39,465 bases of DNA from a virus (taxonomy: Duplodnaviria; Heunggongvirae; Uroviricota; Caudoviricetes). This document shows, piece after piece, positions 1,146 to 6,999 of this stretch. How positions within the stretch are numbered: position 1 is the first letter of the stretch; each line of letters begins with the position of its first letter. The position numbers were made by a program, and so were the translations under genes. The notes under the pieces are model-generated. The model searched no databases and was not told the origin of the DNA. It worked only from the letters and a program-made list of their open reading frames with translations. The DNA lies in IMG/VR virus record IMGVR_UViG_2529293078_000013. The stretch is one strand, 5' to 3'.

Positions 1146-1290
1146 TCGATCGACAAAAACGATCGATTCGATTTGTTTAATTGATACAACAAATAGATTG
1201 AAAAGTCATCAACAATGATTCAGGGAGGTGATTATTTACTTAAAGAAAACGAAGAGTTAGGTGGTGAAAACGATCATAAAATGATCATTT
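1146..1290. promoter_or_regulatory. com-mom upstream regulatory region with a cluster of Dam GATC sites
   Basis: Four GATC sites at 1148-1151, 1161-1164, 1272-1275 and 1283-1286, in palindromic contexts (ATCGATCGA; TGATCATAAAATGATCA); AT-rich. Confidence 0.4.
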
Positions 1291-1679
1291 TATTGACTTT
1301 TTATACAGTGAAGGTAGGATCACGCGTATATGTAGTATGTTTCAAATCAACAGGATACTACATAAAAGTGAAACCCAGCATAGCTGGAACTATGCTGGGT
1401 CAATCTGTAAAAACTTGCATCAATGCTTTACTTCGAGCTCGTGGCGTATCCTATGATATTCCCCGGTCTCCTGTAAAGCAGAGATGCATAAAAAGGAGAT
1501 CTTTATCATGGATGAAAGAGCCTGTTTGCCCTGCCTGTAAGACTCCCTTACAGCTCATCTATCGCCGTTCTCGATCTCAAAATGGCAAGACATACAAACC
1601 CAAAAATGCTTCCTGTTTCAGGATGCTGATATGTCCTGCCTGTTCTCCCAGGAGGGAAAATACACAAAACGTGCATTAA
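1215..1679 (+). CDS. Hypothetical plus-strand protein; C-terminal 55 aa form a two-CPAC zinc ribbon. Likely real start at 1512 (AGGAGA at 1494-1499)
   Basis: Only ORF in a 570-bp stretch lacking minus-strand ORFs; C-terminus CPACK...(x25)...C...CPAC; stop lies 10 nt before the bidirectional hairpin at 1689-1708. The N-terminal 100 aa are doubtful. Confidence 0.35.
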   Translation: MIQGGDYLLKENEELGGENDHKMIILLTFYTVKVGSRVYVVCFKSTGYYIKVKPSIAGTMLGQSVKTCINALLRARGVSYDIPRSPVKQRCIKRRSLSWMKEPVCPACKTPLQLIYRRSRSQNGKTYKPKNASCFRMLICPACSPRRENTQNVH

Positions 1680-1717: not shown

Positions 1718-1963
1718 TTACATCATAGTACCGTCAGTTCCGGGCTGAACCGGCTCTGGTTGCTCTACGGGTTGAGGATCATTTTCCGTGCTGTTTTCAG
1801 CCGGAGAACGGCCAACCATTCGGGCCAGCACTTCATCAACATATGCGTCGATTTGTGCCTCAAAATCCTTGCGAACCTGCGCCTTCAGCACGCGGTTCAC
1901 TTCTTCAGAATAAAGTGCCTGTTTGACAAGCTCTTCAGTAACCGTGCCTTTAATCTCTGGCAT
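1718..1963 (-). CDS. Hypothetical 81-aa protein, helical N-terminus with acidic Pro/Glu/Gln-rich tail
   Basis: Protein-like composition; AAGGAGA Shine-Dalgarno 7 nt upstream of ATG; second gene of a two-gene minus-strand operon. Confidence 0.6.
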   Translation of the reverse strand: MPEIKGTVTEELVKQALYSEEVNRVLKAQVRKDFEAQIDAYVDEVLARMVGRSPAENSTENDPQPVEQPEPVQPGTDGTMM

Positions 1964-1998
1964 GAATATTCTCCTTTTGCAGGTATATTGCCCCGTTA

Positions 1999-2181
1999 TC
2001 AGAGCGGGGTCGGGTCGTTTGGGGATGACGGTGCCTGTGCTGTTTTACTGAGTTTTTCAGCTGCCGCATCATCAATTTTACGGCGAATATAATTTCTGAT
2101 GACCTTATAACCACCGCTCACCAGATATAACGCACTGACCACAGCGCAGAAATAAAGCAGCATTGTATGAACGAATGTCAT
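1999..2181 (-). CDS. Hypothetical 60-aa small membrane protein (one predicted TM helix followed by a basic segment)
   Basis: Hydrophobic stretch LLYFCAVVSALYLVSGG then RNYIRRK; immediately upstream of the 81-aa gene. Confidence 0.5.
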   Translation of the reverse strand: MTFVHTMLLYFCAVVSALYLVSGGYKVIRNYIRRKIDDAAAEKLSKTAQAPSSPNDPTPL

Positions 2182-2294
2182 ATAACCTTACCTTTGATAT
2201 TGACTACATAATTCGTTATCGGGTAAAAACATCGAAGCGACTGATAACCACTCCTTCGGGAGTATTTTTATTTTCCTTTATGGGTTAGGTAGCT

Positions 2295-2329
2295 CCCGCC
2301 AGCCATATCATGACCGGCGGGATTTTTTT
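2295..2329 (+). terminator. GC-stem hairpin followed by T7 run; intrinsic-terminator-like, oriented for plus-strand transcripts
   Basis: CCCGCC...GGCGGG stem (2295-2300 / 2316-2321) followed by TTTTTTT (2323-2329); abuts the stop of the 682-aa gene. Confidence 0.35.
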
Positions 2330-4376
2330 ATTCTGTTACCGCTTTTTTCACTTCCACCACAATGCTGTCAATCAGCACCGGGTAAGTTGCATTTTTTGTG
2401 ATATCCGTTACGCGGAGTTTGTCCACCGGGAAAGTTCCTACTGGTGACTGCGTCAGGGTAAACGCGGCACCATCCTGACCATCAATAACCGGAATAACCT
2501 GAAGGCTGTTATTTCCTGCAAAACGGAAGGCCAGCGTATGCCATTCATTATCAAATGCACCAAAGGTTCCCAGTTTCTGGTTATTTGTTGCCACTTTTGC
2601 ATTGTGGTACATCACATTCAGGTCTTTTGCGTCTGTCTGGATGTAGAACGATGCCAGCAGATTATTCCCTGCATCCCCTGTCAGGGTGACACCCTGCGGC
2701 AGAGAGGAAACCGGCCAGTAAAGCCCCATGACATACTGGTTTGCCACCAGGTCGCCAGGTACTTTAAAACGACAACTGATTAAACCACCATTTTTCAGCA
2801 GTTCAGCACCAGTACCGGCATCATGATCCAGATACCAAGATGATTTACCTGTTTCCTTGGTCAGTTTCATTGCCTTACCACCTGTGCCTCCTGCATCACT
2901 GATAATTTCAGCTTTACCGCCAGCCGGCTCCCAGCCCTGGGCTTTCAGATTTCCTTCTGACTCACTGACACGATAAGACAGCAGTGTTGTGGTTACTGCT
3001 TCAGTTTCTGAAGGTGACGGCACTGGTGCTTCAGTTTCAGAAGATGGAACATCGGCTTTTACTGTGGTTCGCCCCGCATGAGTCAGAACTGCCGTGGCCA
3101 GACGGTCGGAAATAATCCCACGACGTGCCCATGAACTGAAATGGCTGGCCCGGTCCGCAGATGTCCAGGTGGCGGCACTGTTACGCCACGTTGAGCCGTA
3201 ATAACCAATGGATTCAATATCCGGGTCTTCTGCCGGATTGTTGGTGGGTACATTCGCGTCATTTTCATCTGTCATTAATGGAACGAAATGAATGTTTTTA
3301 TCTGTTTTGTTTTTGTAGCCGCCATAGATTGCCTGGTATGCCGGTTCATTTTTCTGTTTCCAGAAATACGTGGTATCGCCACAAATCCACGGAACGCCAG
3401 CAGCACTGCCACCGGTACACTGTTCCGCCTGTTCAGCCAGGTCTGCGCGGAATTTTTCCACCATCGCCAGAAACAGCGCGGAATGCTCCGTCGGCTTCGC
3501 ATCAATATCAAACTCGCCCTGCATCCACACCACAGCAAGCAGGCGGTTTTTCGGGTTCTTCGCCAGTGCCGCTTTTGTCCGGCTGATTAAGTCCTTATAC
3601 AGCGGCTTATCCACACCCCAGCGGGCTGAGTCCTCTGAAGCACCCGTGCTGTCACTGTACGTGCCGTCAGCACCCGCCGTGAATGCAGAACCACCACGGC
3701 AGCAGGGAACCAGCAGAATCCCCGCATCTGCCGGAATAAACGGCAGCAGTTTTTTGGCAATGTGAAGCCCCTGACCCACGGTGCCATATTGCCCTTTAGC
3801 CACATCCGCTTTCGGGTGATTTTTTCCACTCATATCCTGCACATCATGCAGACAGTGGTCGGCCAGAATGATGTCGTTATACTGACAGGCTTTACCTCCC
3901 GGCGTGACTGTACTGCGACGGGCTAACTGCATAATACGCGGTTCGGGGCGGTCATATGTCTCCGGCAGTGGCAGACCTTCACCGTAAGCCATACCGTTTG
4001 ACTGACCAGCAAGAACCACCACGTAATACCAGGAAGGGGAGCTGGAAGCAGTTTCATTTCCTGACGGACGGGTATGTGTTTCAGCATTATCCCAGTCTGA
4101 CGGTTCAGCAGTACCGGCAACATCAGCACTTAACGGAATGACCGCACCAATACCCGCTCCGGTAATTTCCACACTCGGATCACCGGATACTGGCCTTACC
4201 CACAGGCAATCCCGTGTATTAAAACTGATGAGACAGTCAGCAAATGTCATTCCTCCTTTTGTTTCGGCCGGAGGAAAGGGAGCCTCAAGAAATGCCGCTG
4301 TACCACCGGAAACTTTAACGGTAAAGTTTCCGGGCATTGATGATAGTTGAACCCATTTGGACGTCATAATATTCAT
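2328..4376 (-). CDS. nanS-p: Prophage NanS-p-like sialate O-acetylesterase (SASA/SGNH-type) with C-terminal lectin-like domain; cargo gene
   Basis: Central region (LAGQSNGMAYGEGLPLPE, VPCCRGGSAFTAG, WMQGEFD, RRGIISDR) closely matches E. coli NanS/YjhS as I recall it; a Pro/Thr/Glu linker and a C-terminal domain follow. Confidence 0.8.
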   Translation of the reverse strand: MNIMTSKWVQLSSMPGNFTVKVSGGTAAFLEAPFPPAETKGGMTFADCLISFNTRDCLWVRPVSGDPSVEITGAGIGAVIPLSADVAGTAEPSDWDNAETHTRPSGNETASSSPSWYYVVVLAGQSNGMAYGEGLPLPETYDRPEPRIMQLARRSTVTPGGKACQYNDIILADHCLHDVQDMSGKNHPKADVAKGQYGTVGQGLHIAKKLLPFIPADAGILLVPCCRGGSAFTAGADGTYSDSTGASEDSARWGVDKPLYKDLISRTKAALAKNPKNRLLAVVWMQGEFDIDAKPTEHSALFLAMVEKFRADLAEQAEQCTGGSAAGVPWICGDTTYFWKQKNEPAYQAIYGGYKNKTDKNIHFVPLMTDENDANVPTNNPAEDPDIESIGYYGSTWRNSAATWTSADRASHFSSWARRGIISDRLATAVLTHAGRTTVKADVPSSETEAPVPSPSETEAVTTTLLSYRVSESEGNLKAQGWEPAGGKAEIISDAGGTGGKAMKLTKETGKSSWYLDHDAGTGAELLKNGGLISCRFKVPGDLVANQYVMGLYWPVSSLPQGVTLTGDAGNNLLASFYIQTDAKDLNVMYHNAKVATNNQKLGTFGAFDNEWHTLAFRFAGNNSLQVIPVIDGQDGAAFTLTQSPVGTFPVDKLRVTDITKNATYPVLIDSIVVEVKKAVTE

Positions 4377-4466
4377 CCTGTTCCTGAATAAACAGAATTA
4401 TCATATCCACAGACCGATAAACGCCATTTTGCGTTAATTCAGTAAAGGCCCAACAAAGGGAGCGTC

Positions 4467-5027
4467 TTATTTTTCCGAAACGCTCGCAGGATAATAACGA
4501 TAAAGGGTTGAAAGGCCGATATCAAAAATAAGTGCCACCTGTCTTCGACTGACACCCCCGGCCAGTAAACGCCCGACCTGCTCGTATTGTTCCTGCGTGA
4601 GACGACGGGGTCTGCCGCCGGTTCGTCCCCTTTCACGGGCAGCTGCAAGACCAGCCCGTGTCCGTTCGACAATTAATTCACGCTCCATTTCTGCCAGCGC
4701 ACCCATTATGTGAAAAAAGAAGCGCCCCATGGGGGTTGACGTATCAATGTTGTCAGTAAGACTACGAAAATTTATCCCCTGTTGCTGTAATTCATCTGTC
4801 AGCGCAACAAGGTGGCGCATACTGCGCCCCAGCCTGTCCAGTTTCCAGACCATCAGTGTGTCACCGGGTTTTAGTTTCTTCAGTGCCCGCTTCAGTCCCG
4901 GCCGCTGTGTCGTTTTACCACTCATTTTGTCTTCAAAAATCTGCTCACATCCTGCACATTCCAGCGCATTTCTTTGTAAACCGGTGTTCTGGTCATTTGT
5001 TGATACGCGTATATAGCCAATCAGCAT
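4467..5027 (-). CDS. gin: Serine recombinase / DNA invertase (Gin/Hin/Pin/Cin family)
   Basis: MLIGYIRVSTNDQNTGLQRNALECAGCEQIFEDK... is near-identical in pattern to Mu Gin; adjacent to the invertible segment. Confidence 0.9.
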   Translation of the reverse strand: MLIGYIRVSTNDQNTGLQRNALECAGCEQIFEDKMSGKTTQRPGLKRALKKLKPGDTLMVWKLDRLGRSMRHLVALTDELQQQGINFRSLTDNIDTSTPMGRFFFHIMGALAEMERELIVERTRAGLAAARERGRTGGRPRRLTQEQYEQVGRLLAGGVSRRQVALIFDIGLSTLYRYYPASVSEK

Positions 5028-5081
5028 GTATTTACCTTCCTTAAAAAGAGGTGGAAAGGCCTTTTAAAGCAGATATACGGC

Positions 5082-5107
5082 ATCCCTGAAACCTCGGTTT
5101 ACGGGAT
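5082..5107. other. gix-like recombination site, gin-proximal boundary of the invertible segment
   Basis: AAACCTCGGTTTACGGGA matches the centre of the Mu gix site; 13-bp core TCGGTTTACGGGA recurs inverted at 6458-6470. Confidence 0.65.
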
Positions 5108-5452
5108 ACTGTAAACAGGGCCGCGAATGCCCTGCCATCGAACGGAACGGCTGTTGCAGCGAATAAACTCGCCACTCCAAGAAATATTAATGGTGTCCCA
5201 TTTGACGGAACGCAGGATATAAATATTACATCGGGGATGACGCAGTCTGTGGCTGACTCACGTTATGTTCAAAGCATTCGAAGAGGTTCAAGGTCAACGA
5301 TTGGAATGCAATATAATATTTTTGAAGTTCCTGACGGATGCGTACTTACAGGGCTTGATGTCGCTGGTGATGGTAATGCAACGGTAACCGCATATTATCG
5401 ACCTGTTCAGTTTCTGATAGATGGTTCGTGGAAAACAGCTTCCAGCGCATAA
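5090..5452 (+). CDS. Sv': promoterless alternative tail-fibre C-terminal segment (no start codon; expressed only after inversion, fused to the constant part of S)
   Basis: Frame open from the TGA at 5087-5089; encodes NLGLRDTVNRAANALPSNGTAVAANKLATPRNINGVPFDGTQDINITSGMTQS..., colinear with S residues about 175-230, then diverges; ends YYRPVQFLIDGSWKTASSA versus S YYRPVQIYINNAWRTVSSV. Confidence 0.7.
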   Translation, partial: NLGLRDTVNRAANALPSNGTAVAANKLATPRNINGVPFDGTQDINITSGMTQSVADSRYVQSIRRGSRSTIGMQYNIFEVPDGCVLTGLDVAGDGNATVTAYYRPVQFLIDGSWKTASSA

Positions 5453-5531
5453 AAGTGCAGTAGTTCAAAAAACAGATTATCTGAATAAATATATGATGAT
5501 TTTGTCTTTTCAACAAAAACAAGGTGAAATA

Positions 5532-6053
5532 ATGGAGCTTATTAACGTAAAACGATATTACCCGGAACACAAACCCTATGGTGAGGATGTTCAGTATTTC
5601 CAGAGTGAGGACGGAAGGGATTTTTATGAATCTATCCCGCTTTTCACAAAGAAATACAAACTCTGTATTTCGCCTGTAACGGGTATTATCTGCTCTGTTG
5701 CTGAAGATGTCTCTGCTTTATATCCGGCAGGTTTTACTGTTGTTGAAGTGGACGAACTGCCGGAAGGTGTGAATATTGACGGTAACTGGCAGTGTTCTGA
5801 TGGCCTGATATCAAAGGTGCCGGTAAACTGGAAGACGGTTGCTGAAAAGCGTCGCTCATCGCTGCTCCAGGAAGCCAACGAAACCGTGGATGACTGGAAA
5901 ACAGAATTAAAACTGGACATGATTAGCGATGAAAATAAATTACAGCTGACGCGCTGGATGGCGTATATCCGACAGCTTAAAGAAATGCACTTTAATGATA
6001 TTGCCAGTGAGGGGCATTACCAGGCGATTCCCTGGCCGGAAAAACCGGAATAA
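5532..6053 (+). CDS. Tail fibre assembly protein (Tfa/U'-like), partner of Sv'
   Basis: MELINVKRYYPEHKPYGEDVQYF... is a typical Tfa N-terminus; AAGGTGA RBS before ATG at 5532; lies inside the invertible segment. Confidence 0.8.
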   Translation: MELINVKRYYPEHKPYGEDVQYFQSEDGRDFYESIPLFTKKYKLCISPVTGIICSVAEDVSALYPAGFTVVEVDELPEGVNIDGNWQCSDGLISKVPVNWKTVAEKRRSSLLQEANETVDDWKTELKLDMISDENKLQLTRWMAYIRQLKEMHFNDIASEGHYQAIPWPEKPE

Positions 6054-6087
6054 TTCAGAGGGTGCATTCAGCACCCTTTTCTGTGGT

Positions 6088-6999
6088 TTACACTGAACTT
6101 ACCGTTCTCCAGGCATTATTAATATAAATCTGAACCGGGCGATAATAGACCCCACCGATATTGTCCGCAGACCGGGAGCCGGTTTCCTGCACGTTAATAC
6201 CGGAAAGCATACAACCGGAAGGTGCGCTGTAATTCCATGATATTTCATTGCCTCCGGGTGAATGATAGCTCTGTGCTCCAAGCTGAACATTCTGTACATA
6301 CCGGCCATCTGCGGTTGACTGCGTCATTCCTGACGTGATGTTGATATCCTGCGTTCCGTCAAAAGGAACGCCATTAATATTTCTTGGGGTGGCGAGTCTG
6401 TTTGCTGCCACGGCGGTTCCACCCGATGGCAGGGCATCAGCAGCCTTATTTACCGTTTCCCGTAAACCGACGTTATCGATAAAAGCGCCTTTATCCGGAA
6501 TGTCTGCGCCGTTCTGCTCCCTGCGCAGGTAACGGTTATCACCTTCGCTTTTGCTGTAAACATCCAGATTATTACGGGCGGTTCCCGCATTCTCCAGGTC
6601 GGCAAGGTTCTGATCCTTCGCCAGAGCATTAACGTCACCGGGACCAAGACTGTTTTTTGTGGCAAGCGCCCCAAGACCAAGATAACCACGGGCAAGACGC
6701 TGGGCTTCCGCACCGGCATCAGCAATTTCTTTCAGGTTGTTTTTCCGGGAAAAGGCATTCGCAGCGATAATGGCTTTAATGGACAGCGTAAGCTGGTTTA
6801 ACTGCGCCTTATCCGGCTGAATACTGGCTTCAGCCAGAATATTCAGCAGTTCGGCCTGGAGAATATTCAGCCAGTCCTGACCAATCCAGCTGATACCTTT
6901 TTGTCCGTCACCTTCGGTAAACCAGGTGGTGGTATTACTCTGCGCCGGTGCCAGCGCAGGCATATTCGCCACGCCGGAATTATTATCAACATGAAACAT
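6088..6999 (-). CDS. Tail fibre protein S (constant N-terminal part outside, variable C-terminal part inside the invertible segment)
   Basis: 303 aa; the gix site falls at codons IDNVGLR (about residue 175); the C-terminal tip is paralogous to Sv'. Confidence 0.85.
   Translation of the reverse strand: MFHVDNNSGVANMPALAPAQSNTTTWFTEGDGQKGISWIGQDWLNILQAELLNILAEASIQPDKAQLNQLTLSIKAIIAANAFSRKNNLKEIADAGAEAQRLARGYLGLGALATKNSLGPGDVNALAKDQNLADLENAGTARNNLDVYSKSEGDNRYLRREQNGADIPDKGAFIDNVGLRETVNKAADALPSGGTAVAANRLATPRNINGVPFDGTQDINITSGMTQSTADGRYVQNVQLGAQSYHSPGGNEISWNYSAPSGCMLSGINVQETGSRSADNIGGVYYRPVQIYINNAWRTVSSV
6457..6482. other. gix-like recombination site inside S (S-proximal boundary of the invertible segment)
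   Basis: TCCCGTAAACCGA at 6458-6470 is the inverted copy of the 5094-5106 core. Confidence 0.65.

Follow-up and report, generated by a model that had tools for sequence, protein, structure and literature searches.

Tail-fibre C-termini are exchanged by inversion in several known systems that use Din-family invertases, among them the C segment of P1 (Cin), the P segment of e14 (Pin) and the Min system of p15B. In P1 and e14 every fibre tip has a tail-fibre assembly gene (tfa) of its own; the Min system shuffles several cassettes. A tip and its Tfa chaperone are commonly regarded as an inseparable pair, in models of phage host-range evolution as well as in the engineering of fibres for phage therapy and tailocins. 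In phage Mu, the N-domain of Tfa binds the fibre tip and Tfa remains on the virion, according to PMC9608196, which cites North et al. 2019. For the Mu-like prophage Sp18 of Escherichia coli O157:H7 Sakai, an invertible region has been on record since 2009 (Asadulghani et al., PMC2669165). The available passages of that paper report spontaneous induction, packaging of the DNA and Mu-like particles, state that Sp18 was not inducible with mitomycin C, and contain no description of a single tfa, of variable cassettes for the alternative tip (Sv') or of derivatives lacking the invertase gene gin. Here we describe the analysis of a Gin-invertible fibre segment in IMG/VR virus record IMGVR_UViG_2529293078_000013, a stretch of 39,465 nucleotides (nt) which is referred to in its whole length as the window, and find in it a real and active fibre switch of the Gin/gix type known from Mu, the asymmetry of which is conserved: at least two tips are accompanied by one chaperone gene.

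The features of the switch, with coordinates in the window, are as follows (lengths in amino acids, aa, or base pairs, bp).

4467-5027, minus strand: gin, serine DNA invertase of 186 aa (Pfam Resolvase, E 1.4e-51; HTH_7, E 1.7e-14)
5082-5107: gin-side gix, 26 bp, CATCCCTGAAACC-TC-GGTTTACGGGAT, central TC at 5094-5095
5087-5452, plus strand: Sv', promoterless alternative C-terminus, a startless open frame that is silent in the window orientation; unique tip 5272-5449
5090-5271, plus strand: left arm of a 182-nt inverted repeat, 79% complementary to the right arm; the shared fibre-coding part of Sv'
5094-6470: invertible segment, 1,377 bp between the crossover dinucleotides
5453-5531, plus strand: AT-rich spacer of 79 nt between Sv' and tfa, part of a swappable cassette
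5532-6053, plus strand: tfa, tail-fibre assembly gene, 173 aa (PF02413 Caudo_TAP, E 5e-18, 65.9 bits against a cut-off of 22.1; PHROG 136)
6057-6079: GC-rich hairpin between the convergent stops, central terminator, RNA fold of -17.9 kcal/mol
6088-6999, minus strand: S, fibre gene, 303 aa, the N-terminal 190 aa matching Mu S (5yvq_A, E 1e-48)
6088-6470, minus strand: Sv, variable C-terminus of S, expressed in the window orientation; unique tip 6091-6292
6293-6474, minus strand: right arm of the 182-nt inverted repeat, 79% complementary to the left arm
6457-6482: gix on the side of Sc, 26 bp, TTATCGATAACG-TC-GGTTTACGGGAA on the late strand, central dinucleotide at 6469-6470
6471-6999, minus strand: Sc, constant N-terminal part of S outside the segment, residues 1-190 aligning to Mu S 1-191

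Gin is about 76% identical to Mu Gin (hand count from the alignment) and retains the catalytic Ser9 and the motif GYIRVSTNDQ; nucleotides 61-180 of the gene, in the 5' part in which invertase genes of this kind carry a Fis-dependent recombinational enhancer, are about 70-75% identical to Mu gin. The two gix sites share the central TC of the Mu site, TTATCCAAAACC-TC-GGTTTACAGGAA, and by hand count match it at 10-11 of 12 positions in the inner half-sites and at 9 of 12 in the outer half-site next to Sc. Exactly two copies of the 13-bp core TCGGTTTACGGGA are present in the window, one at 5094-5106 on the plus strand and one at 6458-6470 on the minus strand, the two places at which a reading of the sequence alone (the sequence-only reading) had put inverted gix-like sites; dinucleotide-preserving shuffles gave a mean of 0.05 matches to the core, and none of 100 shuffles had two. 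Both cores sit within the 182-nt inverted repeat. The same reading had described a compact 1.4 kb segment less than half the size of the Mu G segment, which agrees with the measured 1,377 bp (45% of about 3,059 bp).

In order to look for both orientations, the inverted form was built in silico, and both forms were searched against 5,426 complete E. coli genomes, a match of at least 80% coverage being counted as collinear. The window form was collinear in 182 genomes (141 at 99% identity or more) and the inverted form in 23 (14 at 99% or more), so that the window orientation makes up about 89% of the sequenced copies (182/205). This bias of 8:1 is not interpretable as it stands, because many of the genomes are clonal and an assembly reports the majority state only. 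Two copies in opposite orientations are present in the genomes of strains 8479, Z869 and SMN197SH3, and two pairs of sister assemblies with identical tfa (L010 and L011; L012 and L013) differ only in orientation. An absence of inversion would have counted against the sequence-only reading; the occurrence of both orientations in complete genomes, in sister assemblies and in two-copy genomes shows that the inversion is real. Gin recombines the two inverted gix sites, and this joins Sc with one of the two C-termini, Sv in the window form and Sv' in the inverted form. The second junction is in frame and gives an open fibre of 295 aa, against 303 aa for Sc-Sv, with the same N-terminus.

The O157:H7 setting of the window is seen from its 100% identity over this region to complete O157:H7 chromosomes, e.g. 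NZ_CP038328, and public phage records label the region 'inserted Bacteriophage Mu-like phage'. Its gene order is Mu-like, with the repressor, ner and the transposase genes A and B at the right end and the late genes on the minus strand, where baseplate J/gp47, gp48, fibre, invertase and com/mom follow one another. The O157:H7 match and the Mu gene order together identify the window as an Sp18-type Mu-like prophage of E. coli O157:H7. The system as such is present in about 200 of the 5,426 complete E. coli genomes, O157:H7 included.

The layout within the segment was as the sequence-only reading had given it, with Sv on the minus strand (6088-6470) and the promoterless Sv' (5087-5452) and tfa (5532-6053) on the plus strand; tfa is co-oriented with Sv', and no tfa lies downstream of the fibre that is expressed in the window orientation. 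The possibility, raised by the same reading, that a second tfa-like gene had been overlooked did not hold. Nine Tfa or DUF4376 queries (the window Tfa, Mu U and U', SfMu 50 and 51, the yong1, Rac-SA53 and L015 Tfa proteins, and a DUF4376 protein) were run by tblastn over the whole 39.5 kb window and matched only 5532-6053. The stop of tfa is just 34 nt from the stop of S. An antisense open reading frame (ORF) of 98 aa downstream of Sv and opposite tfa, considered as a hidden chaperone gene, was rejected because it is not kept open in relatives, and neither the 34-nt nor the 79-nt gap has similarity to tfa genes that would mark the remnant of a deleted copy. The spacer of relative L007 matches only the upstream region of the locked form described below. 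A 210-aa ORF (5421-6053, plus strand), which starts within Sv' in another frame and continues into tfa, is used in some public gene calls; since other cassette types do not conserve the additional stretch, this longer ORF is probably an artefact of gene calling.

The window Tfa matches Mu U (5yvq_B, E 3e-14) and aligns to U residues 23-158. It fits the pattern of a two-domain Tfa, with a variable fibre-binding N-domain and a conserved helical C-terminal domain (domain roles according to PMC9608196). The central hairpin has a U-tract on the plus strand only in the window and is found at the matching position in all relatives examined, as well as between U and U' in Mu and SfMu. A role as an orientation-dependent gate on read-through into gin was rejected, and the hairpin is best read as an ordinary end-of-operon terminator, because in relatives the hairpin is flanked by A and T tracts on either side and an equivalent one exists in Mu and SfMu.

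The two tips had been proposed to be paralogous, and this was borne out: Sv and Sv' have about 60 aa in common from the repeat, and their last 75 aa are 36% identical. Beyond the repeat, Sv has a unique end of 67 aa and Sv' one of about 59 aa. The Sv tip (last 70 residues of S) matches the C-terminal domain of Mu S, 5yvq_A residues 434-503; with the fibre tip of Rac-SA53 it shares 65% identity, with the S' tip of SfMu 59-60% and with the tips of P2-like H proteins 55-61%. The nearest tip to Sv' is that of the fibre of Hafnia phage yong1 (57% by tblastn, 51% over the last 75 aa). All tips examined, that of Mu S too, end in the conserved motif YYRPxQxxIxGxW. The ratio of nonsynonymous to synonymous substitution (dN/dS) of the unique Sv tip against its relatives is 0.07-0.11, with dS of 0.5-1.7, which points to strong purifying selection on this tip.

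The asymmetry is not peculiar to the window. In every relative with a tfa 59-98% identical there is a single tfa, which converges on a tip of the Sv family, and the layout is kept even in lineages with tfa just 59-72% identical; such conservation argues that a single tfa is the normal state and not an accident. At the convergent position only two related tip types are found, the Sv type and a 'D' type, which share the motif GxKVQDxGxxxADNxGGVYYRP. On the other side, homology between variants is lost where the 182-nt repeat ends and returns precisely at the ATG of tfa, so that the swappable cassette consists of the unique Sv' tip and a spacer of 51, 79 or 121 nt; at least four types are found. 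The window and L007 have nearly the same tfa (98% identical) together with unrelated Sv' tips, the L007 tip being Mu-S-like, and L006 and L012 have tfa N-domains that are 99% identical and Sv' tips that are only 45% identical. From these pairings Tfa appears to be promiscuous. Two species scans for the tfa family gave no match in the first and one degraded Symbiopectobacterium locus in the second, and members of the family occur for the most part in E. coli and near relatives of it.

Outside this single-tfa architecture, Sv-tip homologues were directly followed by a tfa in all cases found: SfMu (S' tip), Rac-SA53, P2-like H genes and Cronobacter CR3, CR8 and PBES02. Members of the window's own tfa family that occur without an invertase lie 2-15 nt behind an Sv-type tip in the Mu-like L015/L016, the P2-like L020 and Rac-SA53. 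These arrangements suggest that the window tfa may be an old partner of Sv and not of Sv'. In the Mu-like L015/L016, from other E. coli, the invertase is absent and S with an Sv-type tip stands in tandem with tfa, followed by a second, lambda-stf-like fibre of 657 aa, a DUF4376 protein and, after these, com/mom; here two fibres take the place of a switch, which makes it a different solution.

A natural derivative that cannot flip was also found. In 7 of the 5,426 complete genomes gin, the gix next to it and most of Sv' are deleted (equivalent to 4400-5450 of the window; the locked relatives listed are L014, L018, L019 and L025-L029). The locked derivatives share one junction, 94-99% identical, and hold the fibre and tfa permanently convergent in the window-like orientation. 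Five locked prophages that were examined lie in five different host genes (xdhA, next to citF, bcsA, flgL and hsdR) and otherwise appear to have their full length; the one prophage that was inspected from end to end is complete save for an insertion sequence (IS) element. Strains M1 and M18 have nearly identical locked copies at different sites; S1-CAM-01-A and CI5 are further natural strains without gin. A remnant of the 3' end of Sv', ending in TAYYRLIIDLTIHDAAFST and the stop, persists upstream of tfa. The full 173-aa tfa ORF is retained in six of seven locked loci (four of the five genomes and assemblies L014 and L018), with pairwise dN/dS of 0.11-0.36.

With a little less than even confidence, we favour a reading in which one promiscuous Tfa serves both tips and is produced whichever way the segment lies. 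One Tfa would act as chaperone for whichever tip is fused to Sc, and we propose the terminal motif YYRPxQxxIxGxW as the element that the shared Tfa may recognise. In the inverted form tfa would be co-transcribed with S-Sv', and in the window form it would be transcribed from a putative promoter on its own strand. A chaperone that is uncoupled from its tip would leave the position next to tfa able to accept bare tip cassettes, and this would account for the high variability of Sv' next to a tfa and a convergent tip family that persist. A bolder formulation, put forward tentatively and with a chance that we place clearly below even, is that an uncoupled generalist Tfa, transcribed from its own strand either way, folds at least five tip types and that tips are exchanged as bare cassettes of about 60 codons, or else that Sv is Tfa-independent and inversion toggles Tfa on the fibre.

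Several observations weigh against a shared Tfa expressed in both orientations. No sigma-70 promoter for tfa stood above background in consensus and weight-matrix scans; the best score on the plus strand of 4990-5545 was 8.7, against a background median of 7.0 and a 90th percentile of 9.1, and a scan of the other cassette types and of the locked form likewise gave nothing above background. The sequence upstream of tfa varies by cassette type and homology ends exactly at its ATG, so there is no conserved promoter there. The motif CTGAWATYCCGCAAARCCYGCC-N17-TTAYGCTG, which lies upstream of the lysozyme gene (about 28392, minus strand) and of the protease/scaffold gene (about 20464, minus strand) and is probably the late promoter of the phage, under the control of a C-like activator, is without a match in 4900-6600; its sensitivity is limited, since it also missed the expected P and mom promoters. 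In the locked copies the synonymous divergence of tfa (0.07-0.43) far exceeds the divergence of the adjacent non-coding junction (1-6%), so the tfa alleles may be recombination imports. The selection signal on tfa has perhaps not arisen in the locked state, and the deletion allele could have spread by recombination and not by infection. Finally, Mantel-type covariation over 15 loci between tfa and the tips is weak (rho 0.41), and all three parts reassort. Among the invertible loci (n=7) tfa tracks Sv' with rho 0.56, against 0.32 for Sv. The idea that tfa is the strict cognate partner of Sv, suggested by the tandem relatives, is unproven in view of this weak covariation and reassortment, and promiscuity seems the better description.

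The main rival, which we regard as unlikely, holds that the Sv tip is Tfa-independent, folding by itself or with host chaperones, that Tfa serves Sv' only, and that inversion toggles the tip together with whether the virion carries Tfa. It accounts readily for the co-orientation of tfa with Sv', which brings tfa within reach of the late operon in the inverted form only, and for the lack of a visible tfa promoter in the window orientation. It also suits the gin-less locked prophages, which have spread with Sv-type fibres and no co-transcribed tfa, and the 182 of 205 complete-genome copies that stand in the orientation with no tfa downstream. However, every Sv-type tip found outside this single-tfa architecture directly precedes a tfa, in three instances one of the window's own tfa family, and a gene serving Sv' alone should decay in locked derivatives that have lost Sv', whereas six of the seven loci keep it. 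In Mu, moreover, U is reportedly needed for fibre formation, a result attributed to Grundy and Howe in 1984. The sequence-only reading had offered both a shared chaperone and a chaperone-independent tip as options, and the evidence is compatible with either.

We think it improbable that Tfa is supplied in trans, either because some of the many phage copies flip during lytic replicative transposition, S-Sv, S-Sv' and Tfa then all being produced within a single cell, or because the tfa of a co-resident prophage substitutes. That gin is intact and that both orientations coexist in single two-copy genomes would fit such a supply, as would the wealth of related fibre and tfa sequences in E. coli, where 797 of the 5,426 genomes have partial matches to the region. 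Tfa-type chaperones can also cross-complement, lambda Tfa standing in for T4 gp38 being an example. Against this, the gin-less derivatives cannot flip, yet the layout is kept in them and has spread, and in Mu the G segment inverts too slowly to have an effect in the course of a single lytic cycle. Simultaneous late expression of other prophages is not expected either, and mitomycin C does not induce Sp18 (PMC2669165).

A defective or 'off' window orientation, which the sequence-only reading had offered as one option and in which the Sv fibre stays unassembled for want of Tfa as part of an on/off phase variation of infectivity, or the layout is a product of decay after one tfa was lost, is unlikely and indeed the least credible of the explanations: although no tfa lies downstream of S-Sv and the simple loss of U' from a G segment like that of Mu would yield exactly this layout, the option is disfavoured by the strong purifying selection on the Sv tip across lineages (dN/dS 0.07-0.11, dS up to 1.7), by the conservation of the layout where tfa is only 59-72% identical, by locked prophages at five different insertion sites in unrelated strains, by the window orientation of about 89% of sequenced copies, and by the induction and packaging of Sp18.

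The region between gin and com/mom carries further genes. A protein of 682 aa with SASA (sialate O-acetylesterase-type) and DUF6645 domains is encoded at 2328-4376 on the minus strand, and a DUF1378 gene (1999-2181, minus strand) and a DUF826 gene (1718-1963, minus strand) lie there likewise. In Mu and SfMu gin adjoins com directly, whereas the window has the inserted genes at 1718-4376, which may be a cargo module from another phage type. On the opposite strand, an ORF of 154 aa (1215-1679, plus strand) between com and the DUF826 gene matches PHROG 26524 (unknown function) and is annotated as frameshifted in NZ_CP038328. Records LC727881 and LC727895 contain the same Mu-like phage, 94% identical over this region and in the window orientation; according to their annotation, it is inserted within Stx2c- and Stx1a-converting prophages.

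What the locus adds is a widespread natural system that keeps one chaperone for several interchangeable tips, with the chaperone gene on the strand opposite to the fibre gene in the commonest state. If Tfa is a generalist that is expressed independently of the fibre, it would be a useful helper for tip swapping; if Sv can do without Tfa, it would depart from what seems to be the rule in every relative examined, that such tips come with a tfa. The gin-less natural derivatives are ready-made locked strains that bear on either idea.

Compared with known systems, the fibre loci of Rac-SA53 (tail1/tail2), L015/L016 and L020 share the window's tfa family (identity of 53-57% overall and of 64-69% for the N-domain) and have an Sv-type tip with 55-66% identity to that of the window; they differ in that fibre and tfa stand in tandem, 2-15 nt apart, and that the invertase and the alternative tip are absent. 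SfMu and Mu-type E. coli prophages such as that of FDAARGOS_1059, in which inversion has been confirmed by long reads (PMC9881135), resemble the window in being Mu-like and in having gin and an invertible fibre segment, but their layout is a symmetrical one of four genes with two tfa genes. The Mu G segment occupies the same position, after the gp48 homologue and before gin and com/mom, and agrees with the window in its invertase (Gin about 76% identical), in near-identical gix sites with central TC, in an S whose constant part is homologous to Sc (190 aa), in alternative C-termini that end in YxRPxQxxINGxW, and in a central terminator hairpin. It differs in the length of the variable fibre parts (about 320 aa in Mu, against about 127 and 119 aa in the window), in the direct junction of gin and com, where the window has the additional SASA/DUF6645, DUF1378 and DUF826 genes, and in having a tfa behind each tip (S-U and S'-U'), where the window has one, convergent with one tip and only about 28% identical to Mu U and U'. 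The underlying switch is ordinary Gin/gix biology, the presence of which in Sp18 has been noted previously.

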